DNA of 64,000 nt from Coriobacteriia bacterium (GCA_007121015.1 SKMN01000048.1:1666-65665), one strand, 5' to 3'. Numbered from the stretch's first letter, positions 39,784 to 59,893 are shown. Notes: generated by a model not told the origin, from the sequence alone. Numbers and translations: made by a program.

Positions 39784-41010
39784 ATGGGCGTAGAGCTTCC
39801 GATCGAAGACCCAATACTCCAATTCACGGTGCTCGTGGGCATCGCCCTCGTCGTCCAAGCAGTCTTCAAACGGATCCATATCCCGGGACTCGTCGGTCTA
39901 CTCGCGGCAGGCATGCTCATCGGGCCCGACGGGTTCGGGGTCCTTCCCGAGGGCACGGTCGTGGAACTGCTCGGGTCGATAGGCCTGCTCTACATCATGT
40001 TCCTCGCGGGACTCGAGATAGATCTCGACGTGGTCAAGGAGCACCGGGAAGAGTCGGCCGCCGTCGGCCTCCTCACGTTCGCCCTCCCGATGCTGTTCGT
40101 GGCGGGAGTCGGCGTGGCGATGGGCTACGGCTGGTCCGGGGTGCTGCTTCTCGGCGCCGCTCTCTCGTCGCACACGCTGGTCGCCTACCCGATGCTCGAG
40201 CAGATGCGCTTGCTGAGCCGCAGACCGGTCGTCGCGGCTGTGGGCGGCACGCTCGTGACCGATACGCTGGCGCTGCTCCTGCTGGTCGTGATCATCCGAA
40301 GGGCGACCCACGAGGGTTCCGATGTCCTCGGCTGGTCGGGGCCGATACTGCTGCTCGCGGTGCTCGTCACGGTGTCGTTGCTTCTCGTCCCGCGCGTCGC
40401 GCGGGCCTTCATGGAGCGGATCGACACCGAGCAGGCTCTCGGCGCACTCTTCGCTCTCGCCGTGCTGATGCTGCTATCTGCTGGAGCGGGGCTGATCGGG
40501 ACCGAGGAGATACTGGGGGCCTTCCTCGCGGGGGTGTGTCTCAACACCGCGGTGCGGCGTCACCGTGTGCTGAGCGAGCACATCCAGTTCGTCGGGCGCA
40601 TGTTGTTCATACCATTCTTCTTCATCTCGACGGGTATGCTGCTCGAACTCGAAGTGTTCATCGAATCGACCGACACGTGGGTGCTCGCTGCAGGACTGCT
40701 CGGAGCTGTCGTGCTCGGCAAAGGTGGCGCTGCGTGGTTCGCGGGCCGCGTGTTCTCATACTCGCCGATGTGGCGCACTATGATCTTCGGGTTGACGATC
40801 CCCCAGGCGGCCGCGACGTTGGCCGTCGTCGTCATCGCGCAGCAGGCGGGCTTGCTCGATGCCCGTGCGGTGGATGCGGTGATCATCGTGATCTTCCTTA
40901 CCTGCACCGCGGGACCGTTGATCACGGAGTACACCGGCAGCCGGGTCCTCGACCGCGACTTCCGGGGCGACATCCTGGTCGTGGACCCCGAGCAGGAGGG
41001 GAGAGGGTGA
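39784..41010 (+). CDS. Cation:proton antiporter (CPA2/Kef-type Na+/H+ exchanger family), no RCK domain
   Basis: The N-terminus PILQFTVLVGIALVVQAVFKRIHIPGLVGLLAAGMLIGP and about 12 TM segments fit the family. Confidence 0.82.
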   Translation: MGVELPIEDPILQFTVLVGIALVVQAVFKRIHIPGLVGLLAAGMLIGPDGFGVLPEGTVVELLGSIGLLYIMFLAGLEIDLDVVKEHREESAAVGLLTFALPMLFVAGVGVAMGYGWSGVLLLGAALSSHTLVAYPMLEQMRLLSRRPVVAAVGGTLVTDTLALLLLVVIIRRATHEGSDVLGWSGPILLLAVLVTVSLLLVPRVARAFMERIDTEQALGALFALAVLMLLSAGAGLIGTEEILGAFLAGVCLNTAVRRHRVLSEHIQFVGRMLFIPFFFISTGMLLELEVFIESTDTWVLAAGLLGAVVLGKGGAAWFAGRVFSYSPMWRTMIFGLTIPQAAATLAVVVIAQQAGLLDARAVDAVIIVIFLTCTAGPLITEYTGSRVLDRDFRGDILVVDPEQEGRG

Positions 41011-41014
41011 GGGC

Positions 41015-42325
41015 TTACTTCGAGGACGGGGACTCGAATTCGAAGGTGAGCATCTGCGTGAGGCGCTCGTACTTCTCCTCGAGGTCGTCTTCATCGGCCC
41101 CGCCGAGGTAGGCGACGGCGTACTCGTAGCTGTAACTGTCCTGTTCGACCATCTCTCCGAGGACCGTTCCTGGCTGGACACGGAGTTCGAGATGCAGCTC
41201 CGGGAACTCCTCACGCGCTTGCTCGACCTCTTCATCGGAGGGGATGGCCGTGACGACACCATCCTCGAAGCGGCGCAGCATGAACTTCGCGGCGCATGCG
41301 AACTCTCCTTCGCCGCGCGGGTAGTCGGGCCGACGCCCGAGCGATAGTTCGACGGCGACCTCGTTATGAGGGGTGCCCTCCACCATCTGGAAGATAGGGC
41401 TGTGGGCGCCACTGATCCGAGCGTTCGTCTCGAGCACCCACACCTTGTCGGTGTCCTCGTCGTAGAAGAACTCCATGTTGAAGGGACCGTTGTCGTATCC
41501 GGTACGTCGCAGGATCTTGTGGGCCGCGGCGACCATGCGGTCCTGCACCTTCCGGGGCAACCTCGAGGGGTACTGGTACCGGACGAAGCTCGATCCGCCT
41601 TCCGCCCGCACCGAGTCGACCACACCGTATACGAGCGGTTCGCCGTCGTACACGTAACCTTCGAGGGTGCACTGCTTGTCCGAGGAGATGATCTCTTCGG
41701 CGACGCAGTGATAGCCATCGGCCTCGGCGATCTCCGGAGGGATGTCGGCGAATCCGAGAAGGTGGTTGAAGGGTTCGGCGAAACGGCCGATCCCGTCCCG
41801 GATCTGTTCGAGGGCACGGCGCAGGTCGTCATCGCTCTCGATGAGGAACCCGAGGACCGAGGCATACGACCTCACCGGCTTGATCCAGAACGGGTAGTCG
41901 AGGGCGATGTCTCCCGCGCCATCGACGTCGTAGGGGTCGACCAGAGCGAATCGGGGGACATGCTCGGGCACGACGGCCTGTTGCTCGACGCGGCTCCAGT
42001 ACTTGTGCTCGCAGCGCAGCACGCTCTCGAGCGAAGGTCCGGGGAGGCCGAGTGCTTCTCGGAGGATCGGAGCCATCGTCGAGGACGGGAAGTCACGGTG
42101 CGTGAGCAGTCCGTCGATCCGTTCCGGGAATGCTCGCAGTGTCCCCTCGGCCTCCTCGAGCAGTTCGGCGACCGGGTAGTGGGACGCGCCGTACACCTGG
42201 TTGGCTGAAAGGAGTGGATGGAAACGGTACCGGTGGGCGTTGCGTATCGCTTCGAAGTACCGCATCGAGTAGCTGTGCGAGGGGTCGGACTCGACGACCC
42301 CTATCACGAAGACGTTCTCGGCCAT
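41015..42325 (-). CDS. ATP-grasp domain carboxylate-amine ligase-like protein
   Basis: It has the central block YPFWIKPVRSYASVLGF and FNMEFFYDEDTDKVWVLETNARISG. The substrate is unknown. Confidence 0.6.
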   Translation of the reverse strand: MAENVFVIGVVESDPSHSYSMRYFEAIRNAHRYRFHPLLSANQVYGASHYPVAELLEEAEGTLRAFPERIDGLLTHRDFPSSTMAPILREALGLPGPSLESVLRCEHKYWSRVEQQAVVPEHVPRFALVDPYDVDGAGDIALDYPFWIKPVRSYASVLGFLIESDDDLRRALEQIRDGIGRFAEPFNHLLGFADIPPEIAEADGYHCVAEEIISSDKQCTLEGYVYDGEPLVYGVVDSVRAEGGSSFVRYQYPSRLPRKVQDRMVAAAHKILRRTGYDNGPFNMEFFYDEDTDKVWVLETNARISGAHSPIFQMVEGTPHNEVAVELSLGRRPDYPRGEGEFACAAKFMLRRFEDGVVTAIPSDEEVEQAREEFPELHLELRVQPGTVLGEMVEQDSYSYEYAVAYLGGADEDDLEEKYERLTQMLTFEFESPSSK

Positions 42326-42451: not shown

Positions 42452-45025
42452 TTACCGTGCTGCGAGCAGGACCGCCAAAAGGACCACGAGCATGATGGAG
42501 AGGGCGAGATCGAGGTCTCGGGTAACGGCGTTCGAGACCCGCCTCAGCGTCACGATGCGCTCCTGCTCGGGCCGGTCCTCGCCCCAGTCGGTGCGCTCTC
42601 TCGTGAACGCCGCGACGACGAGCTGGACGATGTCGGTGATCCAGGCGCCGAGCGTTCTTGGAAGCGGCGAAGCGGACGGCGAGGTGTCTGGCTGGACCGT
42701 CGGAGACGGGCCGAGAGGCCCCTGCGTATGCCAGCCGGGCGGCATCGTGCGTGCGATGTTCCCGGCGAAGTCCTCGGAGTGAAGGATCCGCACGACGAGT
42801 GTCGACATGTGCGGGATCACGTTCTCCCCTGCCATCCTGCGCAGGGCCAGGTCGTGCACGGCGGCGATGATGGTCTCTCTCGTGCGGTCCCCCGCCTCTC
42901 TCAGGGCGATCTCGACGGCTTCAAGAGAGCGCTCGGGATCGGATCGCACCATCCTCGTCGCCGTGGCGATGCGGTCGTTGCGCACCCGCCACGCGGTGTA
43001 GTCGACGATGTCTCGCACGGCATCGATGTACTCGTCGCAGCCTCGTCCCGGGCACGCCGGCGCCTCGCGTTGCCGTTCCTCGGCATGTGCCACGGCGTGT
43101 TCGACCGTGGCGACGCGATCGTCTTCCAGCACGTCACTGATGTGCTGGAAGACGATCGCTGCATGCCTGTCCGGCGAGCCCTCGACGATCGTCGCGATAG
43201 CGCGCTGCCTAGCCCTGCGCCACCGGAGTCGCATGAGTGAGGCACTCGCCGACGCCGACCGGATGGCCCGTGAGGTCGAAACGATGTGCGCCTCGTAGCG
43301 GGTGCCAGCGAGACTCGCCACCTGCAGCCCAGCCTCGATGGAGCGGTCGTACCAGTAGTCGATCGAGGCCCAGCGGGGGACACGTGCGCGAGACACGTCT
43401 ACGCGCGCATCGAGCGCGAAGATGGCGGCGCCCATCGCGAGGGCGAGCAGTGAGAAGCCGGCGTGCTCCCAGGTGAACTGGCGGTAGGAGACGAGTACCG
43501 ACGGGTCGAGACCGAACCCCTGCACGGCCGGGGTGATGGTGCTGTGCAGCAAGACCAGCGGCGCCCACCCTATGGCGAGCATCGCCGCACTCAGCGCGAC
43601 CATCCCCGCCAGCATGCGTGGTGACGCGTCCGCTACCTTCTTCAGCCCGGCGTTCGCCGGGCCACCGAACGTCATCCAGAGCAGTTTCGCGAGTACCGCG
43701 ACCGTTCCGCCGCCGGCGAGCACGAAGGCGGCTTCGAAGGGGCCGATCGCGCCGAGGAGGCGCACCGGTTCGGCTGCCTCGACAGCGTGGTGCAGGAGCG
43801 ACTTGCTCACGAATCCGTTGAGCAAGGGGAGCCCGGTTATCCCGGCGGTTGCGACGACCATGACGGTCAGCGTCTTTGGCATGCTGCGCCACAACCCGCC
43901 GAGGCGGCGCAGTTCCGTCGTGCCCGCATTCTTGAGGACGGCGCCCGCGCCGAGGAAGAGCGCGGCCTTGTAGAGCGCGTGGTTCACGATGTGATAGAGG
44001 CTGCCGGACAGGCCGTACGCGGCCGAGCGGTCACCCGTCAGATACGCCGCCGCCCCGAGTCCGGCGATGACGAAGCCGATCTGGCTGATGCTGCTGTACG
44101 CGAGCATCCGCTTCATGTCGTCTTGCGCAAGGGCGATGGCTACCCCGGCGATCGCCCCGGTCAGGCCTACCACGAGCAGCACGAGGCCCGCAGCCGCACT
44201 GGGATCGACGGAGAGGTCTATCCCTTCGGCAGGCACGAGCAGCATGTACAGCGTGCGCAAGATACCGTACGCACCTGTCTTGATGAGGACGCCCGAGAGC
44301 AGCGCGCTTGCCGGGGACGGGGCCACCGAGTGTGCGTCGGGAAGCCAGATATGCACCGGGAGCATACCCGCTTTGACGCCGAAGCCGAGTACCAGGAGTG
44401 CGGCCGCCAGCCAGCGCAGCGCCGACGTGTCCTCCTGGAAGGGGACGGGAGCGAGCGAATCGCCGCCACCGATGTGGAAAGTGAGCAGCACTCCTGCCAG
44501 CAGAAGGAAACCGCTCGCGATCGTCAGGACGAGGTACTTCGCGGCCGCCCGCTCCGCCTTTCCGGTACGCTTGTGCACCACGAACAGATAGGCGAGGAGA
44601 CCCATGAGCTCGAAGGCGAGGAAGAGCGTCACGAGGTCTCCTGCGAGCACGACCCCCATCGTCGCGCCCAGCGTCGCCAGCGCGGTGACGTGGAATCGGC
44701 TCGAGTCGTCGTCGTCTCGCAGGTAGTCGAGCGAGTGCACGGCGCAGCATGTCCACACGAAGGCGACGACGACCGTCAACAGGTGCGCGAACAGGTCGAG
44801 TGTCAGGGTCGCTTCGGCTAGCAGGAACGGGACCGACACGTGCAGCGGGTAGACGCCACTCGCGACCGGCACGAGCGCGACCGCAGCGACGAGGGTCGCC
44901 GAACTGGCCGCCACGACGAGCGCATCGCGCTGCCGACCCGCTCCGCCTACCACCCCTACGAGCGCCGCCCCGGCGAACGGGAGGCCTACGAGCGCGAGTA
45001 CGAGGGCCGTCATCGGACTCGGCAT
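42452..45025 (-). CDS. MrpA/NuoL-like antiporter-type subunit with a roughly 300-aa hydrophilic C-terminal extension and a terminal TM helix
   Basis: The proton-antiporter core has LAFELMGLLAY, HIWLPDAHSVAPSPASALLSGVLIKTG and HIVNHALYKAALFLGAG. The start was chosen at the ATG 6 nt after GAGGAGG and 14 nt after the upstream stop; the ORF opens at 45097. Confidence 0.82.
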   Translation of the reverse strand: MPSPMTALVLALVGLPFAGAALVGVVGGAGRQRDALVVAASSATLVAAVALVPVASGVYPLHVSVPFLLAEATLTLDLFAHLLTVVVAFVWTCCAVHSLDYLRDDDDSSRFHVTALATLGATMGVVLAGDLVTLFLAFELMGLLAYLFVVHKRTGKAERAAAKYLVLTIASGFLLLAGVLLTFHIGGGDSLAPVPFQEDTSALRWLAAALLVLGFGVKAGMLPVHIWLPDAHSVAPSPASALLSGVLIKTGAYGILRTLYMLLVPAEGIDLSVDPSAAAGLVLLVVGLTGAIAGVAIALAQDDMKRMLAYSSISQIGFVIAGLGAAAYLTGDRSAAYGLSGSLYHIVNHALYKAALFLGAGAVLKNAGTTELRRLGGLWRSMPKTLTVMVVATAGITGLPLLNGFVSKSLLHHAVEAAEPVRLLGAIGPFEAAFVLAGGGTVAVLAKLLWMTFGGPANAGLKKVADASPRMLAGMVALSAAMLAIGWAPLVLLHSTITPAVQGFGLDPSVLVSYRQFTWEHAGFSLLALAMGAAIFALDARVDVSRARVPRWASIDYWYDRSIEAGLQVASLAGTRYEAHIVSTSRAIRSASASASLMRLRWRRARQRAIATIVEGSPDRHAAIVFQHISDVLEDDRVATVEHAVAHAEERQREAPACPGRGCDEYIDAVRDIVDYTAWRVRNDRIATATRMVRSDPERSLEAVEIALREAGDRTRETIIAAVHDLALRRMAGENVIPHMSTLVVRILHSEDFAGNIARTMPPGWHTQGPLGPSPTVQPDTSPSASPLPRTLGAWITDIVQLVVAAFTRERTDWGEDRPEQERIVTLRRVSNAVTRDLDLALSIMLVVLLAVLLAAR

Positions 45026-45038
45026 GTGCGACCTCCTC

Positions 45039-46562
45039 TCATCGGGATCCCGCCAGTGATTCGGCCGCAAGGCGGGCGAGCGAGAGTGCGGACCCATCGG
45101 CGAACGCGGCGATCCCGAGTAGCGCCGTGATCGCGGTGAGCGCGACTATCGGCGCGAGCATGGACGGTGCGGCCTCGTTCCCGGGTCGGGCCGGGGCGAG
45201 CGACCCCTCGCGCTCCTCGGACGGCTCGCCGAGATACGCGATGCGCACTACCGGTAGCAGGTAGACGGCGGCGAGCGCGGCCCCGCCGAGAAGGACCACA
45301 AGGTAACCTCCCGCGCCCGCATCGAGCATGCCGTAGCCGAGGACCCACTTGCTCACGAAGCCCGCCAGCGGCGGGATGCCGATCAAGGCGAGAGCGGAGA
45401 GAGTGAACGCAGCCATCGTCACCGGGAACCGCCGCGCGATCCCTCCCATCTGGCTTACCCGCGTGATGCCCGCGTTTCGTGCGAGCAGCCCGGCGCACAG
45501 GAAGAGACACCCCTTCATGGACGCGTGGTTGGTGATGTGCACGAGTGCGCCTGTCAGCGGGCCGGGTGCGAGCAGGGACGCTCCGAGTGTGATGTATGCC
45601 ATCTGGCTGACCGTCGAATACGCTAGCCGTCGCTTGAGGTCGTCCTGTTTGATGGCGACCACTGCGGCGGAGATCGCCGTGAAGGCCGCAACGGCAGCGA
45701 GCCCGCGGTCGATGGCCAGGACAGCGAGCCATCGCGCTCCCACGACCTCGTAGACGACACGCACGATCCCGAAGGTGCCGGCGGCGACCATGACACCCGA
45801 CAGTGCCGCCGAGAACGGTGCGGGAGCGGCCGGGTGGGCATCGGCCACCCACCCGTGAAGCGGGAAGAGGGCAGCCTTCACCCCGAACCCGGCGATCAGC
45901 AGGAGGGCGGCGCCCGTGGCGGTGGTCGGAGGGGTGCCTGGTCCGAGTACGCCGCCGGCCGCGAAATCGGCAGCGCCCGAGGCGGAGAAGGCGAGGGCGC
46001 CGCCCATCACGAGCAAGCTCCCGCCGGCCGCGATGTAGACGATGTACTTGCGGGCCGCGGCGATCGCGCTGGAGGTGCCCTCGTGCACTATAAGAGCATA
46101 GGACATGATCGAGAAGAGTTCGTAGAAGGCGAGGAAAGTGATCAGGTCCCCGGCGTACGCGACACCCATCAGGCCCGCGAGACAGAGCATCGAGAACGTA
46201 TGGTATCGGCCTGCGTACCGGTCGTCGCGCAGGTAGCCGACGGAGAACACGAATATGAACGACCACAGCACCGCAACGCTCAGTCCGAAGAGAGCGCCTG
46301 CCGCGTCCACGCGGAGCGACAGGTACACGTCTGGCATCAGCCGGACCAGACGTATCTCGTGCGAGGACCCTGCGAGCACGCCGCGGACGAGTATCGCCGC
46401 GAACAGCGCCGAGGCGACGGGCGCGGTGCCGAGCAGGAGGAAGCGCCCACGTCGTGGCAGCCGACCGTAGAGCAGGGAGAGGCACGCTGCGGCGAGGGGA
46501 AGGAGAACCGCCCACAGCGCGGGTGATAGGAGGCTGTTCGAATGGACGGACATCCTAGTCAC
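45039..46562 (-). CDS. MrpD/NuoM/N-like antiporter-type subunit (third copy)
   Basis: It has AFYELFSIMSY, HGWVADAHPAAPAPFSAALSGVMVAAG and HITNHASMKGCLFLCAG. Confidence 0.85.
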   Translation of the reverse strand: MTRMSVHSNSLLSPALWAVLLPLAAACLSLLYGRLPRRGRFLLLGTAPVASALFAAILVRGVLAGSSHEIRLVRLMPDVYLSLRVDAAGALFGLSVAVLWSFIFVFSVGYLRDDRYAGRYHTFSMLCLAGLMGVAYAGDLITFLAFYELFSIMSYALIVHEGTSSAIAAARKYIVYIAAGGSLLVMGGALAFSASGAADFAAGGVLGPGTPPTTATGAALLLIAGFGVKAALFPLHGWVADAHPAAPAPFSAALSGVMVAAGTFGIVRVVYEVVGARWLAVLAIDRGLAAVAAFTAISAAVVAIKQDDLKRRLAYSTVSQMAYITLGASLLAPGPLTGALVHITNHASMKGCLFLCAGLLARNAGITRVSQMGGIARRFPVTMAAFTLSALALIGIPPLAGFVSKWVLGYGMLDAGAGGYLVVLLGGAALAAVYLLPVVRIAYLGEPSEEREGSLAPARPGNEAAPSMLAPIVALTAITALLGIAAFADGSALSLARLAAESLAGSR

Positions 46563-46565
46563 CCC

Positions 46566-48047
46566 CTACATCCCGAACGCCTGCGCGACGGCGGTCCGAG
46601 CGATCGACAGCGGCATGCCCGGCAGGTCGCTTACGAGGCCGAGCAGTATCACGAGGACGGCGCAGACGAGTGTCGGGTAGAGCAGCGACGGGCGGGCCTC
46701 GCCCAGCGTCGGTTCCTCGGACACCGGCTTGAAGAAGGCGAGATAGAGCATCGGGAACCAGTACGCGGCGTTCAGCAGCGCGCTCGCGGCCATGACGAGT
46801 GCTACCCACCACATCCCGGAGTCGAACCCGCCGACCGACATATGCCACTTGCTGATGAAGCCCGCAAGCAGCGGCATCCCCGTGAAGCCGAGCGCCGCCA
46901 CCCCGAAGGCGCCCATCGTCGCGGGCATCCGCCGTCCGATGCCGCTCATCTCACTGATGTTCGTCTTGCCGGTGGTCCGCTGTATCGCGCCGGCGGCGAA
47001 GAACATGGTCACCTTCTGCACCGCCTGGTTCGCGATGTGGACGACGGCCGCGACCGCTGCCCAGGGATTGAGTAGTGCGATGCCGAGAAGCACGTACGAG
47101 AGCTGGCTGACGGTCGAGTACGCGAGTCTTCGCTTGAGGTTGTCTTGCAGCAAGGCCATCACCGATGCGGCGATGATGGTGAATGCGGCGAGATAGGCCA
47201 GGGCGTCCGGGAGCCAGGTCTGTCGCAAGAGCTCGACGCCGAAGACATCGTGCACGGTGCGCACCACGCCGAACGCCCCTGCCTTGACGACCGCGACCGC
47301 GTGAAGTAGCGCGCTGACGGGTGTGGGCGCGACCATCGCTCGTGGCAGCCAGCCGTGGAGCGGCATGATCGCCGCCTTCACGCCGAACCCGAGCGTCAGC
47401 ATGACGAAGAGTATCGCAAGCACCGCGGGTGTCGTGTCTGGCGGCACGATGCCGTTGTGGCCGAACGCGAGGACGCCGTCCGACACGACGTAGGTCATCG
47501 CTATGCCGAGGAGTATCACGCCGCCGCCGGTGAGGGTGTAGGTGAAGTACGTGCGCCCGGCTCTCAGCGCCTCCGGCGTCTCGTCGTGGACCACGAGGGG
47601 GTAGGCGCTGATGGTGAGGACCTCGTAGAAGATGAAGAGGGTGAGCAGGTTCTCGGCGAGAGCCAGGGCGACCGTAGCGGAGACGCATAAGGCGAAGAAA
47701 CCGAAGAAGCGGCCCAGTGACCGCTCGCCCTTCATGTAGCCGATCGAATACACGGTCGCCACGACCCACAGCAGTGACGACACGGTCGCGAACGCCATCC
47801 CGAGGGCATCGGCACGGAACCCTATGCCGATGCCCGGCGCGAACTCGGCAAAACGGAAGGTGTAGGCGACGCCTCCCACGGTACCGGGAAGCATGGAGGC
47901 AACGATGATGAACTTGAGGAGCGCGGCGCTCATGCTCCAGAAGCGCCGCCAGCCCGCTCTGCTCCCGCCGATGAAGACGAGCAGTGCGCATACGAAGGAG
48001 ACCATCGGCGCGAGAGCCGGACGTATGTCCCACACCTCGACGGGCAT
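46566..48047 (-). CDS. MrpD/NuoM/N-like antiporter-type subunit (second copy)
   Basis: It has IFYEVLTISAY, HGWLPRAMVAPTPVSALLHAVAVVKAG and HIANQAVQKVTMFFAAG. Confidence 0.85.
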   Translation of the reverse strand: MPVEVWDIRPALAPMVSFVCALLVFIGGSRAGWRRFWSMSAALLKFIIVASMLPGTVGGVAYTFRFAEFAPGIGIGFRADALGMAFATVSSLLWVVATVYSIGYMKGERSLGRFFGFFALCVSATVALALAENLLTLFIFYEVLTISAYPLVVHDETPEALRAGRTYFTYTLTGGGVILLGIAMTYVVSDGVLAFGHNGIVPPDTTPAVLAILFVMLTLGFGVKAAIMPLHGWLPRAMVAPTPVSALLHAVAVVKAGAFGVVRTVHDVFGVELLRQTWLPDALAYLAAFTIIAASVMALLQDNLKRRLAYSTVSQLSYVLLGIALLNPWAAVAAVVHIANQAVQKVTMFFAAGAIQRTTGKTNISEMSGIGRRMPATMGAFGVAALGFTGMPLLAGFISKWHMSVGGFDSGMWWVALVMAASALLNAAYWFPMLYLAFFKPVSEEPTLGEARPSLLYPTLVCAVLVILLGLVSDLPGMPLSIARTAVAQAFGM

Positions 48048-49535
48048 CTAGCCTCCCCCCAGAAGCCGCATCACCCCGGGAAGGGCGATGCCGATCGGCA
48101 CCTGGGCGATGAGGCCCAGCGCCAGTGACGCACCCGAAAGAAGGACCACGGGGGCGAGCATATCGAGGGGCGGATCGACCGCTCTCTCGACCTCCTCGTG
48201 CACGGCGGGACGGAAGTAGAACGCGTTGACGATCCGGAGGTAGTAGATGAGCATCACGAGTGCACTGAAGACGAGCGTCGCGGCCAGGAGCGGACGGGCT
48301 GCGGCCACCGCTCCGACCGCCAGATACCACTTCGTCACGAATCCCGCAGTGGGCGGGACGCCGACGACGGATATCACGGCGACGGAGAGGGCACCGACGG
48401 TGATGGGCATGCGCCGTCCTATCCCGCGGAGGTCCGACACCGTGCGATACCCCGTCCGAAAGGTCAGTGCGCCGAGGGCGAGGAACAGCGCCGCCTTGAT
48501 GACCGCGTGATTGAAGATGTGTATCGATGCACCGGTGAGCCCGCTCTCGTTGAATAATCCCAGTCCGACGGCGATGTAGCCGATGTTGGAAACGGTCGAG
48601 TAGGCCAGCATGAGCTTGATGTCGTCTTGGATGAGTGCGAGGACCGCGCCGAACACGATCGCTATGGCGCCAAGGGTCGAAAGTCCCATGTTGAACGTGG
48701 GCAGATCGACGCCGCCGGCTCCCTGGAAGATATCGTAGGTCCGGATCAGGCCCACGATCCCCATCTTGACCACGAGTCCGGACAGGATCGCGCTCACAGG
48801 ACTTGGCGCGGCGGCGTGCGCGTCGGGTAGCCACAGGTGGAGTGGGAAGACGGCAGCTTTGGTCATGAAGCCGAGGGCGAGCGCCCCGAATGCAAGCACG
48901 ACTGGACGGTGTGGCACGCCGTCCGCGAGGCGATACGCCATATCGGCCATGTTGAGCGTTCCCGTCAGCTGGTAGAGCAGGCCGATCGAGAAGAGCACGA
49001 GCAGCGACGAGAACGCACCCATGACGAGGTACCTGAACGACGCCGCGGCCGCGACCTTCTGCTTGCCGTACGCGACCAGCGCGTAGGCCGACAGCGAGAA
49101 CAGCTCCATGAACACGAAGAGGTTGAAGAGGTCGCCGGTGAACGAGAAGCCGAGGAGACCCCCGAGGTTGATCAGCAAGAGCGCGTCGTAGGGGCCTCGG
49201 CGCGCCGCTTCGACCGCGTGGCGCGAGTACCGGACGCCGTAGAAGACCACCAGGGCGAACACAGGGGCGGCGAGTCCGACGAGGGCCCCGAACTGGTCTG
49301 CCCTCAGCTCGATCCCCCACGGAGCCAGCCACCCTCCGAGGTGGTGGGAGAAGGGGCCGACGTGCGAGACCCTCACGCTCACCATGAATGCGCCGGCACA
49401 CGTCACCGTCGTCACGAGTAGGGTCCACGCGGTCGCCACCCGGTCCGAGATCCGATGGAGTGGAAGGCACAGGGCTGCGCCTGTCACCGGGAGCGCAAGC
49501 ACGCTCACGAGGAGCTGTCCCGGCCACTCGCTCAT
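48048..49535 (-). CDS. MrpD/NuoM/N-like antiporter-type subunit (first copy)
   Basis: It has FMELFSLSAY, HLWLPDAHAAAPSPVSAILSGLVVKMG and HIFNHAVIKAALFLALG. The start overlaps the mnhC stop (ATGA). Confidence 0.88.
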   Translation of the reverse strand: MSEWPGQLLVSVLALPVTGAALCLPLHRISDRVATAWTLLVTTVTCAGAFMVSVRVSHVGPFSHHLGGWLAPWGIELRADQFGALVGLAAPVFALVVFYGVRYSRHAVEAARRGPYDALLLINLGGLLGFSFTGDLFNLFVFMELFSLSAYALVAYGKQKVAAAASFRYLVMGAFSSLLVLFSIGLLYQLTGTLNMADMAYRLADGVPHRPVVLAFGALALGFMTKAAVFPLHLWLPDAHAAAPSPVSAILSGLVVKMGIVGLIRTYDIFQGAGGVDLPTFNMGLSTLGAIAIVFGAVLALIQDDIKLMLAYSTVSNIGYIAVGLGLFNESGLTGASIHIFNHAVIKAALFLALGALTFRTGYRTVSDLRGIGRRMPITVGALSVAVISVVGVPPTAGFVTKWYLAVGAVAAARPLLAATLVFSALVMLIYYLRIVNAFYFRPAVHEEVERAVDPPLDMLAPVVLLSGASLALGLIAQVPIGIALPGVMRLLGGG

Positions 49536-49882
49536 CGGCCGCCCCGCAACTCATCGGCTTCGATGGTGCCATGCTCGGCGTGTATCCGCGTGACGAGGCT
49601 GAGCGCGAGTGCCGTGACGCTGACCGCGACGACGATGCCCACGAGCACGATCGTCTGGGAGACCGGGTCGTGGTAGGGGGACGTCGTGTCCTGCGTCACG
49701 AGTGGCGGACTGCCGTCTCGGGCAAGACCGCCCGTGATGATGAATATGAAGACGGCCGTCTCCATGATGTTGAGTCCGATGATCTTCTTGATGAGGTTGC
49801 TCTTCGCCACGAGGGCGTAGAGGCCTATCAGGAAAAGGATGATGGCGAGGACGTAGTCGGCCCTGTCGAGCAACATCGTCAT
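49532..49882 (-). CDS. mnhC: Na+/H+ antiporter subunit C (MnhC/MrpC, NuoK-like)
   Basis: It has LAIILFLIGLYALVAKSNLIKKIIGLNIMETAVFIFII. The internal ATG overlaps the mnhB stop. Confidence 0.85.
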   Translation of the reverse strand: MTMLLDRADYVLAIILFLIGLYALVAKSNLIKKIIGLNIMETAVFIFIITGGLARDGSPPLVTQDTTSPYHDPVSQTIVLVGIVVAVSVTALALSLVTRIHAEHGTIEADELRGGR

Positions 49883-50589
49883 GCGCGTCCCTCCATCGAC
49901 CAGAACACCGATGCGATGATGGCCGCGCTTGCCGCGCCGATTCCCGCCTCGATGAACAGCATCAGCCACTCTCGCGCCCACGGGAGGGCGGCCGTAGAGG
50001 GGTACGCGAACACTCCGGCGCCAGTGAGGGGTCCGATGGCTGCGAAGAGGAGGAACACCACCATCGCCGCCCCGTGCAGCCACGCCGCGACGTGCTCGGG
50101 CAGGAACTCTCGGGCATGGTCCGAGCCCACGCCGAGAGAGAGGGATATCGCCGCAGCACCAAGGATCACCCCACCCTGGAACGCACCGCCCGGGCCGGCA
50201 TGGCCGGAAAGGACCAGGTAGGTTCCGAAGATCACGATCGCCGGCACCGTGCGGCCGACGACGTAGCCGGTCACCTGTCCAGGGGCGGCCCGGTCGTGGT
50301 GTCCGCCGGAGCCGGACCGGTCCCGCGGGGGGAGGACGGCGAGCACACCGGCGAGTGCGGTGAAGATGACCGCCGCCTCGCCAAAGGTGTCGAAGAGGCG
50401 GTACTCGAGAAGCACGGCCTTGACGATGTTCGTGGTACCGACCTCTTCTGCCCCCTGTTCGAGGTAGTGCTGTGAGACGTGCGAGCGGAACGGCATCTCG
50501 GGAGAGCCCGGGGCGGGCAGTTCGACGACTGCTGACAGCAGCATGACCGCCAGCAACGCGAGCAGGAGGAGTGTCGCAAGCCGTCTCAT
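49879..50589 (-). CDS. mnhB: MnhB/MrpB-domain subunit (MbhE/F-like)
   Basis: It has NIVKAVLLEYRLFDTFGEAAVIF and GHAGPGGAFQGGVILGAA. The ATG overlaps the upstream stop (ATGA). Confidence 0.8.
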   Translation of the reverse strand: MRRLATLLLLALLAVMLLSAVVELPAPGSPEMPFRSHVSQHYLEQGAEEVGTTNIVKAVLLEYRLFDTFGEAAVIFTALAGVLAVLPPRDRSGSGGHHDRAAPGQVTGYVVGRTVPAIVIFGTYLVLSGHAGPGGAFQGGVILGAAAISLSLGVGSDHAREFLPEHVAAWLHGAAMVVFLLFAAIGPLTGAGVFAYPSTAALPWAREWLMLFIEAGIGAASAAIIASVFWSMEGRA

Positions 50590-50828
50590 CGTTCTTCTCG
50601 CTCGGTCCGTTCGATGGCGAGTAGGAACAAGACAGTGGTCACGCCGGCCCCCACGGCCGCCTCGGCCAAGGCCACGTCGGGTGCGCCTCGGAATTGCCAT
50701 AAGACCGAGAGCACGAGTCCGTAGACGGCGAACACGACCACGGATGTCGTGAGGGCCTTCGCGCTCACCGCGAACACGGCTGTCGTGATCAACAGGACGA
50801 ACAGGAGCACATCGAGAGCCTCGGTCAC
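50586..50828 (-). CDS. DUF4040 protein (MrpA C-terminal-region / MbhD-like subunit)
   Basis: It has GAPDVALAEAAVGAGVTTVLFLLAI. Its GTG overlaps the mnhG stop (GTGA). Confidence 0.72.
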   Translation of the reverse strand: MTEALDVLLFVLLITTAVFAVSAKALTTSVVVFAVYGLVLSVLWQFRGAPDVALAEAAVGAGVTTVLFLLAIERTEREER

Positions 50829-51142
50829 TGGTCTCGCCTCCAGGGTACGATGCCGATGCGATACGACGCGCGTGCCAGTGCATGGCCGGATGTCGGGCTG
50901 TAGACCGCGATGAGCGCAAGCAGCGCAACGAGCTTGAGCGTCTGTGGATCGATCCCTTGTCTGAGTATGAGCGCCACGATGAGCAGTCCCGCGCCGAGCG
51001 TGTCGCACTTCGTTGCGGCGTGGGTCCTACAGTAGAAGTCCGGGAAGCGAAGGAGCCCGACCGTGCCGGCCACGAAGAAGAACGTGCCGAGGCACGCGAG
51101 TACCAGGGACATCATCTCGACGATCACGGAGACATCCGTCAT
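50825..51142 (-). CDS. mnhG: Na+/H+ antiporter subunit G (MnhG/MrpG)
   Basis: It has GTVGLLRFPDFYCRTHAATKCDTLGAGL. Confidence 0.85.
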   Translation of the reverse strand: MTDVSVIVEMMSLVLACLGTFFFVAGTVGLLRFPDFYCRTHAATKCDTLGAGLLIVALILRQGIDPQTLKLVALLALIAVYSPTSGHALARASYRIGIVPWRRDQ

Positions 51143-51414
51143 CGCGGGTTCCCTTTCAATCGTCCGGTCTCCAGCATCCGTGAGGCCGCCAGGGCGATCA
51201 CGTAGTTCAGCAGTCCGTAGACGATCGCCACGTCCGCGAACATCTCGCGGTCGAACGCGTGAGCGATGAGCGCGAGCAGCACGAGGGTCTTGGTGCCCAC
51301 CACGTTCACCGCGAGGAGCCTGTCAGGCAGCGTGGGACCGAGCGCCACTCGCAGCAGACAGAGGAGTGCATTCGCAAGCAGGATGACTGCGAGCACCTGT
51401 AGTACGGGGAACAT
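51139..51414 (-). CDS. mnhF: Na+/H+ antiporter subunit F (MnhF/MrpF)
   Basis: It has LLCLLRVALGPTLPDRLLAVNVVGTKTLVLLAL...DVAIVYGLLNYV. Confidence 0.85.
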   Translation of the reverse strand: MFPVLQVLAVILLANALLCLLRVALGPTLPDRLLAVNVVGTKTLVLLALIAHAFDREMFADVAIVYGLLNYVIALAASRMLETGRLKGNPR

Positions 51415-51417
51415 CGC

Positions 51418-51909
51418 TCACTCTTCCAGGGCTTGTGCGATCCGGTATTCGATGCGTCCTTCTTCGAGGGCGTCGGCGAAACGCTCGGACAAGCAGTGCA
51501 CGAGAACGGTGCCGTCGTCTGAGTCGAGTGCCAAGGTACCCGGGGAGAGGGTGATAGTGTTGACGTACAGTGCCTGCGAGAGCGTGCGCGACAGGCCGGT
51601 GTCGCGCTCCACCACTCGGGGGGCGAACGACGGGTGTGGCCGCAGCGCGTCCCACGCCACCTGCACGCCCCCGGTGACGGTGCTCCATACGAGTGCCGCA
51701 GCGTGTCCGAGCAGTCCGAGAGCTCGGTGTGGCGTCAGCCGGGGTGCGCGCTCCGCCACCGTCAGGCGCGGGACCCACCGGGCGAGCGCCGCGCATACGA
51801 CGAGTCCGATGGTCACCTGTTCGATACTCGGGGTACCTACCAGCAACAGCCAGAAGGCCATGAGGACCGCCGATGTCCGGGCAAACCTCGCTCCGTTCAC
51901 GTCGCACAC
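51418..51909 (-). CDS. mnhE: Na+/H+ antiporter subunit E (MnhE/MrpE)
   Basis: It has FWLLLVGTPSIEQVTIGLVV...LYVNTITLSPGTLALDSDD. The start is uncertain because an internal Met is possible. Confidence 0.8.
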   Translation of the reverse strand: MCDVNGARFARTSAVLMAFWLLLVGTPSIEQVTIGLVVCAALARWVPRLTVAERAPRLTPHRALGLLGHAAALVWSTVTGGVQVAWDALRPHPSFAPRVVERDTGLSRTLSQALYVNTITLSPGTLALDSDDGTVLVHCLSERFADALEEGRIEYRIAQALEE

Positions 51910-51953: not shown

Positions 51954-54008
51954 TCAGATGTGGTCCCGAGGGACCGAGCTCTGCCAGGACTTGCAGAACA
52001 CGCGGGCCCCGTTGAGGTAGGCATCGAGGTCCGCCTGTATGTGGAAGGACTCCGGGTCGCAGCTGAGGGTCGTGTGGGTCACGGTGCGGACGTCCCAGCC
52101 GCTCCGGCTGAGTCCCCGGGTCGACAGCACCTCACCGGCGAGCGAGTCGAACTCATCGGCGACCGACGAGTACCACTCGGTCGTGGAGTCCTCGATCTCG
52201 AGATCAATCGATTCGAGGTAGTAGGTGCCCTCGTTCTTGATCACCTTGAGGGTCGAACGGTCCTCCTCGAGGTCTCTCGTCACGAGCCAGTTGTGTTGCG
52301 TCTCCGTGAGCTGCGTGACCGGGTCGGAGGGAGCCGCCTCAGCCACGTCGAACGGCCGGAGACGGGCATCCGATTCCTTTGGCGTGCGTACCGGCAGCGT
52401 GAGCGTGCTTGCTCCGGAGAAGATCGAGAGGCGCACGGGTCGGGGGGGCGCCCACGCGAGCGGCCAGTACGAGGTGGATACCGATATCCGGAGCCGGTGG
52501 CCGGCCGGAAAGACCTGGGCGACATCGTTGAGCTGGACATGGACGGTGTACGTGGTCCCGGGCTCGAGCGGCTCGGGGTGCTCGTGGCCGTTGCGATGGG
52601 TCAGGTTTAGCAGACCGTAGGTGACGCGGGTGGCCTTGTCGTCCGGTGCCACGTCGGAGAGGCGGACGGCCACCATGGCGACCGGCTCCTCGCTGATGAG
52701 AGAGAGTTCGACCACCGGGGCCCCCATGATCTCGAGCTGCCCGTCGAGGGGGATGCTCTCGAACACGAGTGCGCCGCCGTCCTCTTCTCGCTGGTCGTGG
52801 GGCAGGTCGGGTGTGGCGCTGTACGAGCACCACTTGCCTGCGAACAAGCCGACGGACAAGGGCGAGCGGACCGTCTTCATCTCGTGAGGCGCGGAAGCGG
52901 CATCCTCGACGGCTTCGGATGCTACGAGCGGCCAGTCGAGTGCGAAGGTGCGCTCTTCGATGTCTTCCGATGGCCAAGACGGCTCGGCCACCCAACGCCC
53001 GGAGCGGGAACGGTATCGGGTCGTAGGGGCCACACTGTCGAGCATCCACACACGGAGCATGTCCTCCTCCATGATCCCGGTGTCCTCACCCTTGAGCCAC
53101 TGGTCCCACCAGCGCAGACACTCTTGGAGGAAGCCGATGGCAGGGCCAGGTCTGCCCACGTGAGGATAGCGGTGGCTCCACGGGCCGATGAGCCCCTTCC
53201 GGGGCACGTCGAGTTCGCGCATGAGGCGGAAGACGGCGTTGGAATACCCGTCTGCCCAGCCGCTTGCGGCGAAGACCGGACACTCGATCGCGCGGAAGTC
53301 TTCGCACACCGAGCCGTGCTTCCAGTAGTCGTCACGCCGCTGGTGGCGCAGCCACGTCTCGAGCCACAGCCCGCTTCCCTGGAGCCGCTCGAACCACATT
53401 TCCCGCCATACATCGCCTACGACGAGCGGGTCCGGGGGTAGGGAGTTGTACGCGAACATCACCGAGGCCCACGAGAGGTTGTCGCCTAGCAGACAGCCGC
53501 CCATGTAGTGGACGTCGTCGGCGTAGCGGTCGTCCGTGGACGACAGGGTGATGATGGCACCGAGCTCAGGTGGTCTGCGAGCGGCGATCTGCAGGCCGTT
53601 GAAGCCGCCCCACGAGATGCCGATCATGCCGACCTTGCCGTTGCACCACGGCTGAGTCGCGATCCACGTCAGTATCTCCTCGCCGTCCTGGAGTTCCCGC
53701 TCCAGGTACTCGTCGGTCAGCACGCCCTCCGAGTCTCCACTGCCACGTATATCGACCCGCACACATGCGTAGCCGTGACCGGCGAAGTAGCGGTGCACGC
53801 CCTCATCCCGCGTCCTCTTCAAGTCTCGCTTGCGGTAGGGGATGTACTCGAGCACCGCCGGGACCGGATCGGTCTCGGCACCGTCGGGTATCCAGAGCCG
53901 AGCGGCGAGCCGGACCCCGTCGGACACGGGGATCCAGGTGTTCTCGATCTCCGAGAACCGGTACGGCAGCGAATCGTTGATGCGCATCGGTTGCCCCCGT
54001 TCCATCAC
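51954..54008 (-). CDS. CocE/NonD-family alpha/beta hydrolase (X-Pro dipeptidyl-peptidase S15-like)
   Basis: It has PVPAVLEYIPYRKRD, VRVDIRGSGDSEG, the nucleophile elbow GMIGISWGG and a C-terminal jelly-roll domain. Confidence 0.85.
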   Translation of the reverse strand: MMERGQPMRINDSLPYRFSEIENTWIPVSDGVRLAARLWIPDGAETDPVPAVLEYIPYRKRDLKRTRDEGVHRYFAGHGYACVRVDIRGSGDSEGVLTDEYLERELQDGEEILTWIATQPWCNGKVGMIGISWGGFNGLQIAARRPPELGAIITLSSTDDRYADDVHYMGGCLLGDNLSWASVMFAYNSLPPDPLVVGDVWREMWFERLQGSGLWLETWLRHQRRDDYWKHGSVCEDFRAIECPVFAASGWADGYSNAVFRLMRELDVPRKGLIGPWSHRYPHVGRPGPAIGFLQECLRWWDQWLKGEDTGIMEEDMLRVWMLDSVAPTTRYRSRSGRWVAEPSWPSEDIEERTFALDWPLVASEAVEDAASAPHEMKTVRSPLSVGLFAGKWCSYSATPDLPHDQREEDGGALVFESIPLDGQLEIMGAPVVELSLISEEPVAMVAVRLSDVAPDDKATRVTYGLLNLTHRNGHEHPEPLEPGTTYTVHVQLNDVAQVFPAGHRLRISVSTSYWPLAWAPPRPVRLSIFSGASTLTLPVRTPKESDARLRPFDVAEAAPSDPVTQLTETQHNWLVTRDLEEDRSTLKVIKNEGTYYLESIDLEIEDSTTEWYSSVADEFDSLAGEVLSTRGLSRSGWDVRTVTHTTLSCDPESFHIQADLDAYLNGARVFCKSWQSSVPRDHI

Positions 54009-56036: not shown

Positions 56037-56371
56037 CGGTCTGCCCGCGCACGCGTCGTGATGATGGCCGCCGCTACCCCGGCGGGGAGCATGGCTGCTG
56101 CGATGCTGGAACTGCGGGTCATCGGGGCGCGAGTGACGACCGAGCGTACGGCCACGGTAGCGGAGTGCACGTGGACCACCTTTCTGCCGGGTGACTATGA
56201 CGTCTCTACCCGTTCAGGCGGCCTTGCGAGCGTGGTGGGCTTGGCCCCCTTCATGCTTGAGTGCTCCGGGTCGATCGTTGCCGTTCGTCACGTGCATTCG
56301 AGTCGGGGCTTGTTCGCGCCGATTCAGAAATGAGAAGCGGAATCTCTGATAGTGAAGGGCACCACGACGAT

Positions 56372-59300: not shown

Positions 59301-59893
59301 CCGACGAGGTCGCATCGTACGTGATCGAGGCGATCGGGGAGTCCTTCGACGGTACCGCGCTGGTGGCGACCGGAGCAGATTTCCCGGATGCGCTTGCAGC
59401 AGCCCCGCTTGCCGTCGCCAATGGTTGGCCGCTCTACCTGGCACACCCTCAGCACGGGCTACTTCCTGCGACCAGGGTCGCGATGGAGGACATCGACCGC
59501 GCGATCATCCTCGGTGGCACCGAGGTGGTGGACTCGAGCACCCAGACCGCTCTTGAAACGACATACGGGGAGATGAACGTCGTGCGCCTTGCAGGCGCGA
59601 CTCGATACGAGACTGCCGTCGAGGTCGCCGAATATGGTGTCGGTAGCGCGGGTCTGGGATGGAATCGCGTCGGGATCACAACCGGTGAGCTGTTCCCGGA
59701 TGCGCTCGCCGGCGGAGCACTGCAAGGAAGGGCGAGGAGCGTCATGCTTCTCACGGGTACGGATTCACTCCCCGCCGAGACGCGAGCCGCACTCACTGCC
59801 AACAAGGAAAGCATCTCCACCGTCACCTACTTCGGTGGGGACCGCGCTGTGAGTCAGGACGTTCGCAGAGCAGTTGCGCGAGCCCTCCACTAG
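56372..59893 (+). CDS. Cell-wall-anchored S8 (subtilisin-family) serine peptidase with Ig-like modules and three C-terminal CWB2 repeats
   Basis: The catalytic triad motifs are VVDTGVDYEHPDL, HGTHVAGTVAA and SGTSMAAPHVAGVAALL. It also has a signal peptide, a cadherin/Big_9-like module (VLANDTDADGDEL...FTYQAYDG) and two repeated Ig-like modules (..YRSIDIAGNVEE / ..FRSIDVAGNTEE). CWB2 x3 follows (ATRFDTA.., ASRYETA.., ATRYETA..). The alternative start is 56387. Confidence 0.9.
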   Translation: MIGYTMPSRHISFLIAVLVAVLFAGVTPARATTDDGVRTWGPSPFPDADPPAHQLIVRFVPHLEFNFAAQGVAHVRAGTTRVRGLWGMPGYDLVSVPKGSSAEQAMRRYLADPSVSYVEPDHAVRAWVLPDDPLFGQQWALRNTGQSGGTPGADIGAADAWTVTTGGPDVLVAVVDTGVDYEHPDLAPNMWSKLGWNFAERNSDPMDNHGHGTHVAGTVAAAGNDSYGVAGVAWEAQIMALKALGDDGRGWTSDIIDAVNYASYYGADIINMSLGGGSYSQAFYDAIEASEALIVAAAGNNGRDNDSSPSYPASYDLDNIIAVAATDRDDALASWSNYGAESVDLGAPGVAILSTVPGHTYEATTAFADPFDTLDAWSTNSYWYHPWTLSSTRYVSPPHSAGHAPSGGYVANEQSWIFTTDYVSLLDADRIAVRFMARLDTVSSDDWLVLAAKPEGALGWTALAIIAGPTGEFRSYGLETTAMAGTRAQFAFVFVSGDAGGGAGVWVDDVEIDSLVRDSDSDYSDAHGYMSGTSMAAPHVAGVAALLKAYAPGLDAIGLKGAILDTVAPLPGLDGTTLTGGRLDAGAAVASVKPPKSAPVARDDSYTAEAGFELTVVAPGVLANDTDADGDELVAEPITHPAEGKLSLHADGSFAYMPPHGFIGQETFTYQAYDGVEYSDPATVTITVADTIDPMSVAVLDPSPADGAQGWFVSVPAISIEATDTGSGVDHVEWRFGDDEWVKDPVVTGVVDGKHVLLYRSIDIAGNVEEARRIELAVDTSPPVTMSDVAEEVYAAPTTISLVATDTVSGVAATYYSLDGSEATTYTTPIDIAEPGEYTLSFRSIDVAGNTEETQTVGFTLLPPVIEIAGATRFDTAVEASREAFPDGADVVIIATGTDWPDALGGSALAGVLDGPVLLVQHDSVPASVRAEIERLGASRAVIVGGKAAVGTAVSDAFGAAGLDVERIAGASRYETADEVASYVIEAIGESFDGTALVATGADFPDALAAAPLAVANGWPLYLAHPQHGLLPATRVAMEDIDRAIILGGTEVVDSSTQTALETTYGEMNVVRLAGATRYETAVEVAEYGVGSAGLGWNRVGITTGELFPDALAGGALQGRARSVMLLTGTDSLPAETRAALTANKESISTVTYFGGDRAVSQDVRRAVARALH

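Follow-up and report, generated by a model that had tools for sequence, protein, structure and literature searches.

A Coriobacteriia Mrp-type operon with four antiporter-like subunits and no redox module beside it

Gene content and small subunits of the operon

The region of interest, a 64,000-nucleotide stretch of Coriobacteriia bacterium DNA (GCA_007121015.1 SKMN01000048.1:1666-65665; hereafter, the window), carries a membrane operon of the Mrp/Mbh type at positions 42452–51909. The operon consists of ten co-directional, tightly packed open reading frames (ORFs) on the minus strand, transcribed from 51909 towards 42452. A Pfam scan matched all ten proteins to the expected families with E values of 1e-7 to 1e-64, far beyond chance. 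The original prediction, an earlier reading of this DNA, had placed ten minus-strand genes here; all are present where it put them, each with the family anticipated. The gene order is E-F-G-MbhD-(MbhE+B)-C-D1-D2-D3-D4, where D1–D4 denote four large antiporter-like genes, and every Mrp subunit family (the C-terminal part of MrpA, and B, C, D, E, F and G; Pfam) is represented in the one cluster:

51418–51909, minus strand: mrpE/mnhE (163 amino acids (aa), GTG start; Pfam MNHE, E = 5e-25)
51139–51414, minus strand: mrpF (91 aa; Pfam MrpF_PhaF, E = 1e-13)
50825–51142, minus strand: mrpG (105 aa; Pfam PhaG_MnhG_YufB, E = 2e-26)
50586–50828, minus strand: mbhD-like gene (80 aa, GTG start; Pfam MbhD, E = 6e-20)
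49879–50589, minus strand: mbhE+mrpB(MbhF) fusion (236 aa; Pfam MbhE, E = 1e-7, and MnhB, E = 5e-14)
49532–49882, minus strand: mrpC, NuoK/ND4L-like (116 aa; Pfam Oxidored_q2, E = 5e-24)
48048–49535, minus strand: D1 (495 aa; Pfam Proton_antipo_M, E = 9e-65)
46566–48047, minus strand: D2 (493 aa; Pfam Proton_antipo_M, E = 5e-53, and Proton_antipo_N, E = 7e-8)
45039–46562, minus strand: D3 (507 aa; Pfam Proton_antipo_M, E = 2e-51)
42452–45025, minus strand: D4 (857 aa; Pfam Proton_antipo_M, E = 9e-56)

Five of the nine junctions are 4 nt overlaps: ATGA at 51139–51142, GTGA at 50825–50828, and ATGA at 50586–50589, 49879–49882 and 49532–49535. The other four are gaps of 3, 0, 3 and 13 nt. The four overlaps quoted earlier are all real, with that at 51139–51142 as a fifth, and the overall packing bears out the view of the ten genes as a single unit. 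Some individual gene calls needed revision. The gene previously read as mnhB does encode an MnhB domain, but it is a fusion with MbhE rather than a plain mnhB; the last large gene is indeed antiporter-like, but it is not a plain member of the family, having a C-terminal extension of ~310 aa that has no Pfam match. In addition, the start proposed for this last gene (45097) was not upheld: translation most plausibly begins at ATG 45025, which lies behind the Shine-Dalgarno sequence GAGAGGAGG and gives an 857-aa product identical to database protein P0001. D3 has a second possible ATG start at 46553.

The small subunits have their nearest PDB chains in the MBH and MBS complexes of Pyrococcus furiosus. 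MrpF is best matched by MbhB and MbsB, and the mbhD-like protein by MbhD (6cfw_D) and MbsD (6u8y_D); its motif, APDVALAEAAVGAG, is one position off that of P. furiosus MbhD and otherwise identical. The mbhD-like gene is the counterpart of the initial portion of the MrpA C-terminal domain. The fusion protein contains MbhE at residues 33–86 and MnhB at residues 112–217 (Pfam), and its top PDB match is the 235-aa MbsE (6u8y_E), followed by MbhE and MbhF; its architecture is that of MbsE. The proposed E-F-G-A(Cterm)-B-C-D order of Mbh/Mnh type is therefore sustained, both by these affinities and by the same order in the P. furiosus mrpEFGBB'CD operon. Among NCBIfam models, only TIGR01300 (MrpG) passes its cut-off (81.6 bits against 63.1); the MrpA, MrpB, MrpC and MrpD equivalogs all score below theirs, and so the cluster is not assignable to any curated equivalog. 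The best NCBIfam model for mrpC is "antiporter subunit C". In all syntenic loci, mrpE is the first gene of the cluster.

Comparison with solved structures revealed one altered position in the presumptive cation path. MrpF Asn37 (codon 51304–51306) aligns with Asp38 of Bacillus pseudofirmus MrpF, a residue for which simulations (Lee et al.) propose a central role in Na+ binding and transfer (PMC9568556). All five solved homologues (MbhB, MbsB and three MrpF chains) carry Asp at this position, while across 52 related multi-D loci it is occupied by Asn (45), Ser (5), Gln (1) or Gly (1), and never by Asp. A second residue of canonical Mrp, MrpA Glu687, is also missing at the aligned position: when the sequences are aligned without gaps on the APD motif, it falls on Gly, with a Glu four residues (one helical turn) before it, a shift common to MbhD and MbsD. 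Other path residues are kept: MrpF Asp31 (PDR motif), the MrpB-type GHxxPGGxFQGG motif and the GEA motif of MbhE. With an MbhD-type Glu and an MrpF Asn, the cation module is thus MBH-like, apart from one change specific to the family.

Four differentiated large subunits and the D4 extension

The affinities of the large subunits were judged from their PDB bit-score profiles. For all four, the top-scoring chain is MbhH or MbsH. D1 scores 223 bits with MbsH, 222 with MbhH, 182 with MrpD and about 117 with MrpA, with NuoN-type chains also among the next matches; it is accordingly predicted to be the MrpD/MbhH/NuoN-type neighbour of MrpC. D2 and D3 have a NuoL-type N-terminal domain and intermediate profiles. 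D4 is closest in sequence to MbhH, then to MrpA and to MbsH' (151 bits), and in fold to MrpA.

Four such genes in a row could, hypothetically, be an accident: two or more of them might be recent, redundant or decaying duplicates, and D2 and D3 are indeed mutually closest, at about 290 bits and 38–39% identity. The relationships were examined by all-against-all BLAST with two genomes that share the identical ten-gene order: the cultured Coriobacteriia isolate Es71-Z0120 (L001; JAMCCO010000001.1, 651935–674562) and Wenzhouxiangella sp. XN24 (L002). The window's paralogues score 377–612 bits with their positional counterparts and only 155–292 bits with their own operon mates. D1 reaches 486 and 403 bits with its orthologues in L001 and L002 (against 171–192 bits with its operon mates), D2 612 and 543 bits, and D3 388 and 377 bits; that is, positional orthologues in other phyla score far above the neighbouring genes.

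Residue conservation across 20 genomes with four large genes (four-D genomes) tells the same story. The Glu of transmembrane helix (TM) 5, the Lys of TM7, the His/Lys of TM11 and the Lys of TM12 are invariant in D1–D4, and several paralogue-specific substitutions are fixed in 20/20 genomes. In D2, LPxAM stands in place of LPDAH and the second TM11 His is Gln, so that two His residues are lacking; in D3, Ala replaces the TM8 Lys, with no change at the remaining key positions. In each of the 18 loci (of 20) with a complete D4, none of the four reading frames is broken; the D4 frame is truncated in the remaining two, L015 (at a contig end) and L016. Positional orthology and fixed paralogue-specific residues together exclude decaying duplicates, for which an earlier check had been suggested. 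Recent duplication or pseudogene decay was accordingly rejected, and we put its probability at practically nil. The four large genes are ancient, differentiated paralogues.

D4 is distinguished from the other three by its C-terminus. Two features were delimited there:

42452–43387, minus strand: D4 C-terminal extension (residues 547–857, ~310 aa; from AlphaFold2 models and homologue conservation)
42458–42514, minus strand: predicted D4 C-terminal transmembrane anchor (residues 838–856, LDLALSIMLVVLLAVLLAA; from hydropathy)

The core of D4 comprises about 545 residues. Its alignment to Anoxybacillus flavithermus MrpA continues past TM15 into the start of the lateral helix, ending at residue 558. 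Foldseek searches with the AlphaFold2 model of the whole protein (mean predicted local distance difference test score (pLDDT) 83.7) placed MrpA chains 7qru_A and 6z16_A at the top, with NuoL/NdhF also among the top matches; all matches were confined to the antiporter core. E139, K218, K249, H345, H349, K353 and K408 are invariant in 71 homologues. From sequence and model together, D4 is interpreted as the counterpart of NuoL and of the N-terminal part of MrpA.

The extension is modelled as a 60-residue helix followed by helices of 35, 33, 35 and about 24 residues (pLDDT mostly >80), then a disordered linker, an amphipathic helix and the C-terminal transmembrane helix; modelled alone, it has a pLDDT of 79.9. 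Conserved positions run throughout these 310 residues in the alignment of 71 homologues. Against PDB folds, the extension model gave no significant match, the best (E = 0.087) and others being generic helical bundles. Its sequence profile found only 58 clusters among 1.84 billion representative proteins, and every full-length match is the C-terminus of an 812–973-aa protein. In composition, the extension has 40 Arg, 0 Lys and 41 acidic residues. Within the protein, hydropathy peaks most strongly at the predicted anchor (mean Kyte-Doolittle 2.75), and a terminal hydrophobic helix occurs in ten of the ten terminal subunits inspected in relatives with three or four large genes. These related subunits likewise have a hydrophilic stretch plus a terminal transmembrane helix, in sequences that are unalignable between sub-families; they are 661–822 aa long in operons with three antiporter-like genes and 832–976 aa in operons with four. 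MrpA has its lateral helix on the cytoplasmic face, where a transmembrane helix near MrpD anchors it (PMC9568556, PMC7419157). By analogy, the D4 extension is probably an elongated lateral-helix clamp.

Distribution and gene neighbourhoods

D4 homologues of about 880 aa are numerous in metagenome-assembled genomes (MAGs) of Coriobacteriia/Anaerosomatales and occur also in Gammaproteobacteria. The nearest relatives are Coriobacteriia MAGs, among them L019 with 59% identity in D4. A scan of species-representative genomes yielded 80 loci, which were then surveyed for gene order. The exact order had been proposed as something to seek in related genomes, and it was found in both Coriobacteriia and Gammaproteobacteria. 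The four-D form is present in about 20 genomes: those of Coriobacteriia, other Actinomycetota MAGs, one MAG labelled Eubacteriales, and Gammaproteobacteria (Wenzhouxiangella sp. XN24 and two unclassified MAGs). Between Coriobacteriia and Gammaproteobacteria the operon is constant gene for gene, despite different neighbours. A near-identical version of the four-gene run, classified D1-D2-D2-D4, was seen in one Methanosarcinales archaeon MAG and one Schekmanbacteria MAG. A three-D sister form recurs often in Actinomycetota, Syntrophomonadaceae and other Bacillota, and longer rows also occur, such as six antiporter-like genes in L054 and five in L064. Across the survey, rows of 3 to 6 of these genes are a common feature of related operons.

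The commonest flanking family is GGDEF, found directly upstream of mrpE in 8 of 16 four-D loci, all eight being Coriobacteriia or other Actinomycetota MAGs. In these loci, L001 (2180–3088), L004 (2151–3035), L007 (3381–4397), L005, L006, L008, L009 and L010, the GGDEF gene overlaps the mrpE start. One of these GGDEF neighbours also has a weak DUF4118 sensor-type match. The arrangement hints at regulation linked to cyclic di-GMP. The window itself has no GGDEF gene.

Two further arrangements were noted. In gammaproteobacterial loci L002 (13488–22096), L017, L020 and L013, the first cluster is followed immediately downstream by another E-F-G-MbhD-B-C set, divergent and likewise with four large genes. 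The third large gene of this second cluster (L002, 18804–20366, 520 aa) matches Proton_antipo_M at 21.6 bits, barely at threshold; its product is best described as a putative, highly diverged antiporter-like subunit. In Syntrophomonadaceae and other Bacillota MAGs, several of them with soda-lake sample codes, a rearranged core (B-C-D1-E-F-G-MbhD-B-D2-D4) was found in L029 and L040, and also in L039, L050, L067, L072 and L081. Beside it, up to five antiporter-like genes stand in a divergently transcribed row, D4(718 aa)-D2-D2-D2-D4(727 aa).

Many of the source genomes bear alkaliphile genus names, Wenzhouxiangella and Thioalkalivibrio among them. Others carry the sample codes CSSed and B1Sed, which we take to be soda-lake sediment, or CROMO, presumably serpentinising groundwater. 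Enrichment of the operon in what look like lineages of soda lakes, serpentinites and deep aquifers suggests a role in coping with high pH, high salt and a low supply of energy.

Interpretation of the cluster and its surroundings

Two explanations were initially offered for the cluster: (i) a stand-alone cation/proton antiporter with an extended membrane arm, and (ii) the membrane arm of a respiratory complex whose redox module is encoded elsewhere. The evidence favours the former. When almost every other large ORF of the 64-kb window was searched with Pfam, no family of complex I, hydrogenase or formate dehydrogenase turned up; neither a NuoH/MbhM-like connector nor NuoB/NuoD (MbhJ/L) or NuoI (MbhN) is present among the scanned ORFs, in agreement with the earlier report that no redox module adjoins the operon. 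Equally, in the 118 ORFs scanned around 16 four-D loci, neither complex I nor hydrogenase families rank within the top 25 by frequency; the search for a redox module in syntenic genomes, which had been put forward as a check, returned none that is syntenic at these 16 loci. We conclude that the cluster probably encodes a stand-alone, secondary Mrp-type antiporter (CPA3, "group 3", Mbh/Mbs-like) that exchanges cations for protons and has an extended proton arm.

The gene content itself is recognisable as that of a known machine. Group 3 Mrp is a loosely defined set, without mrpA, sometimes with mrpD in several copies, and with an irregular order (PMC8415708, PMC5703873); the cluster has no fused mrpA, an irregular order and mrpD-like genes. 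Since D4 is the predicted functional equivalent of the MrpA N-terminal domain, MrpA would here be split, rather than absent. Canonical Mrp (groups 1 and 2; Bacillus pseudofirmus 7qru, A. flavithermus 6z16, Dietzia 7d3u) has the same seven subunit families and shares the D4-MrpA fold, the Lys/Glu channel residues and, as presumed for D4, the lateral helix with its anchor. It differs in its mrpABCDEFG order, in its single 21-TM MrpA and in having two antiporter-like domains only; the window cluster does not follow the A-B-C-D-E-F-G order, has no single MrpA of at least 21 TM helices, and has four Proton_antipo_M genes. Likewise, no connector or redox subunit, which a respiratory complex would encode with its membrane arm, turned up among the scanned window ORFs or the 25 commonest flanking families of the 16 loci. 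A DAB-type CO2 hydration system or a NuoL-only system was also considered, and rejected in view of the full set of Mrp small subunits.

The closest counterpart is the stand-alone group 3 Mrp of P. furiosus (mrpEFGBB'CD; Haja et al. 2021, PMC8415708), whose deletion gives a pH-related phenotype (PMC8415708). It has the same E-F-G/A-Cterm+B/C/D order, no fused mrpA, MBH-type small subunits and no redox module beside it. However, it has one antiporter-like subunit to the window's four and lacks an MrpA-N-like distal subunit with a lateral extension, and its fusion is a different one: MbhD and MbhE are joined and MbhF is separate, whereas in the window MbhD is separate and MbhE and MbhF are joined. 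That latter, MbsE-type fusion is shared with the MBS arm (MbsA-E, G, H, H'; 6u8y), which together with MBH (6cfw) provides the best matches for D1, MrpF, MbhD and the B fusion. In MBS, H' is a second antiporter-like subunit with C-terminal TM15–16, to which D4 is similar. In contrast to the window cluster, MBS and MBH possess a redox module (MbsJKLMN/MbhJKLMN) and a NuoH-like subunit, have one or two antiporter-like subunits rather than four, and carry Asp in MbhB/MbsB where the window's MrpF has Asn.

The original prediction also held that four antiporter-like subunits in a row are unusual. This stands relative to characterised Mrp, MBH and MBS, but not relative to complex I, in which variants with four or five have been described (Nitrospira 2M, rhizobial "green" and "Ca. 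Manganitrophaceae" Complex_I_3; PMC9040806, citing Chadwick et al. 2018). These have serial antiporter-like subunits and a terminal lateral helix lengthened to span the extras, an arrangement that is predicted for the window cluster too. They differ in being redox-driven and Nuo-type with a full Q-module, and in that the lateral-helix change is a ~26-residue insertion, compared with the ~310-residue domain of D4. Lengthened lateral helices in chains of four or five pumps have so far been recorded only in genome-based accounts of such complex I variants (PMC9040806). Clusters of Mrp with extra NuoL/M- or MrpD-like genes have been mentioned in passing for "Ca. Nitrospira alkalitolerans" (PMC7784846) and NPL-UPA2 Unc8 ("MrpEFGBBBCD, MrpDD"; PMC6305446). 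Likened by description, they come from alkaline habitats and were read as Na+/H+ antiporters, as the window cluster is here, but have three large genes; the papers do not analyse paralogue identity, a terminal extension or the MrpF residue. As to whether the architecture is already a named and characterised subclass, the loose name "group 3 Mrp" covers it, but none of the multi-D members has been characterised. Literature searches found no paper analysing or characterising a four-subunit Mrp, and nothing relevant on "four antiporter-like" Mrp or on mrpD1/2/3 naming. Undescribed so far are the four differentiated subunits, the new ~310-residue domain that goes with the split of MrpA, and the residue change in MrpF.

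How such an antiporter might work can be pictured from the solved Mrp, MBH and MBS structures. MrpE, MrpG, MrpF and the MrpB part of the fusion would make up the cation module. By homology, a junction built of MbhD, the MbhE part and MrpC would come next, followed by D1, D2, D3 and D4 in series. The cytoplasmic helical extension of D4 would run back along D3–D1, pinned by the C-terminal transmembrane helix. With the membrane potential as driver, protons would enter via up to four Lys/Glu half-channel pairs, and their charge movements, relayed along a central polar axis, would drive a cation (most likely Na+) out by way of the small-subunit module. Antiport would be electrogenic, with an H+:cation ratio above the ~2 assumed for canonical Mrp (PMC7419157). 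A higher ratio would be useful under an inverted pH gradient or a small proton-motive force, and would suit alkaline, saline or low-energy anaerobic habitats; electrogenic antiport is needed for alkaline pH homeostasis (PMC7419157). The same machine might operate in reverse.

Several observations weigh against this interpretation. The conserved acidic MrpF residue expected of an Mrp is missing in the window and in all 52 related loci, and so the cation path or specificity may differ. In the AlphaFold2 monomer, the D4 extension is mostly bundled, not one straight helix; moreover, its ~310 residues far exceed the ~26 per extra subunit of extended complex I (PMC9040806), and a role beyond clamping is therefore possible. 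The redox search covered the window and loci of ~22 kb, and a redox partner may be encoded farther away. Finally, a scan for promoters and terminators around the operon gave no informative signal, and the folding score of the spacer downstream of D4 (z = -0.5) is uninformative.

A distant partner is the substance of one rival explanation, in which the operon encodes the membrane arm of a complex I/MBH/MBS-like enzyme, and a redox module encoded elsewhere docks onto it. The small subunits and D1 are, after all, nearest MBH/MBS, group 3 Mrp modules often belong to respiratory complexes (PMC8415708), complex I variants with four or five pumps exist (PMC9040806), and the large, conserved cytoplasmic domain of D4 could serve as a docking surface. 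Es71-Z0120 is even reported to have an incomplete nuo locus (NuoACDHJKLM); however, of its two nuo loci, both located elsewhere, each has its own nuoL and nuoM and one also has nuoN, and the genome description never mentions the ten-gene Mrp-like operon (PMC9686372). Connector and redox families were found neither among the scanned ORFs of the 64-kb window nor among the 25 commonest families in the flanks of 16 syntenic loci from several phyla, the operon stays constant across Coriobacteriia and Gammaproteobacteria while its neighbours change, and D4 appears to close the arm with its own lateral extension and anchor, as MrpA does in stand-alone Mrp. We consider the explanation quite improbable.

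The remodelled cation site invites another rival: that the complex is Mrp-derived but differs in substrate or coupling, performing K+/H+ or Ca2+/H+ exchange or acting as a proton-only conduit. The loss of Asp from MrpF and the displaced Glu of the MbhD-like protein would fit, and other specificities do exist, such as that of the Ca2+/H+ Mrp of Thermomicrobium roseum (PMC5703873). Nevertheless, MBH and MBS have the same shifted Glu and use Na+ (PMC8415708), the MrpF Asp31, GHxxPGGxFQGG and GEA elements are kept, and both neighbourhood and habitat suit salt and alkali homeostasis; a changed substrate or coupling is therefore unlikely. A bolder proposal, which we regard as speculative though somewhat easier to entertain, is that the cluster represents a distinct "long-arm Mrp" class that combines an evolvable subunit number, a new arm-holding D4 domain and a rebuilt cation site. 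The H+:cation gearing would then be set by how many proton-channel subunits there are (relatives have 3 to 6), and the D4 domain may also dock a soluble partner or regulator; many relatives have a GGDEF gene translationally coupled upstream. If true, such a class would be a natural experiment on the number of antiporter modules driven per coupling event, and could be a new type of energy converter, not a simple Na+/H+ exchanger.

Returning to the stand-alone antiporter, how charge is relayed along antiporter-like chains, and what the lateral helix contributes, are debated questions, and the cluster offers a redox-free natural system in which to address chain length, gearing and clamp function. 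Useful contrasts are combined in one complex: a D3 without the TM8 Lys, a D2 without two His residues, an enlarged clamp and an altered MrpF. Cultured carriers of the identical operon (Es71-Z0120 and Wenzhouxiangella sp. XN24) make it tractable. To a specialist in bioenergetics the cluster would be of use as a natural test system but hardly surprising, given how widespread multi-D Mrp operons are and that extended arms are already known. Public labels for the D4 family include "complex I subunit 5 family protein", "NADH dehydrogenase" and "hydrogenase-4 component B", and such labels can mislead metabolic reconstructions.

The operon is bordered by two genes, a CocE/NonD hydrolase upstream and an ATP-grasp gene downstream, both of which had been named previously and were seen in the Pfam scan:

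51954–54008: Peptidase_S15 (CocE/NonD-type) gene (upstream flank, ending 44 nt from the operon)
41015–42325: ATP-grasp gene (downstream flank, starting 126 nt beyond the operon)

Co-transcription of the upstream Peptidase_S15 gene with the operon is possible. About 1.4 kb past the operon end, on the opposite strand, lies a CPA-type Na_H_Exchanger gene (39784–41010, plus strand; E = 4e-56), a family that also flanks two other four-D loci. The window contains several membrane proteins, some with ion or osmotic roles, and includes an MscS-like channel and CNNM/CBS, AI-2E, DUF389 and DUF2254 proteins.

Further from the operon, a putative small multihaem cytochrome c (59908–60516, minus strand; weak, sub-threshold Pfam matches) adjoins a ferric-reductase-like membrane flavocytochrome (60527–61867, minus strand; Ferric_reduct and NAD_binding_1). 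The two are possibly an electron-transfer pair unrelated to the operon. Triple CWB2 cell-wall-binding repeats occur in four proteins (11890–12975, 13970–15025, 56261–59893 and 62160–63998), one of them a 1210-aa subtilase with cadherin/Ig-like domains, which suggests an S-layer-type or wall-anchored surface proteome. Lastly, two L-lactate permease paralogues (15164–16948 and 18919–20565, both plus strand) lie on either side of a gamma-glutamyltranspeptidase gene (17246–18907).

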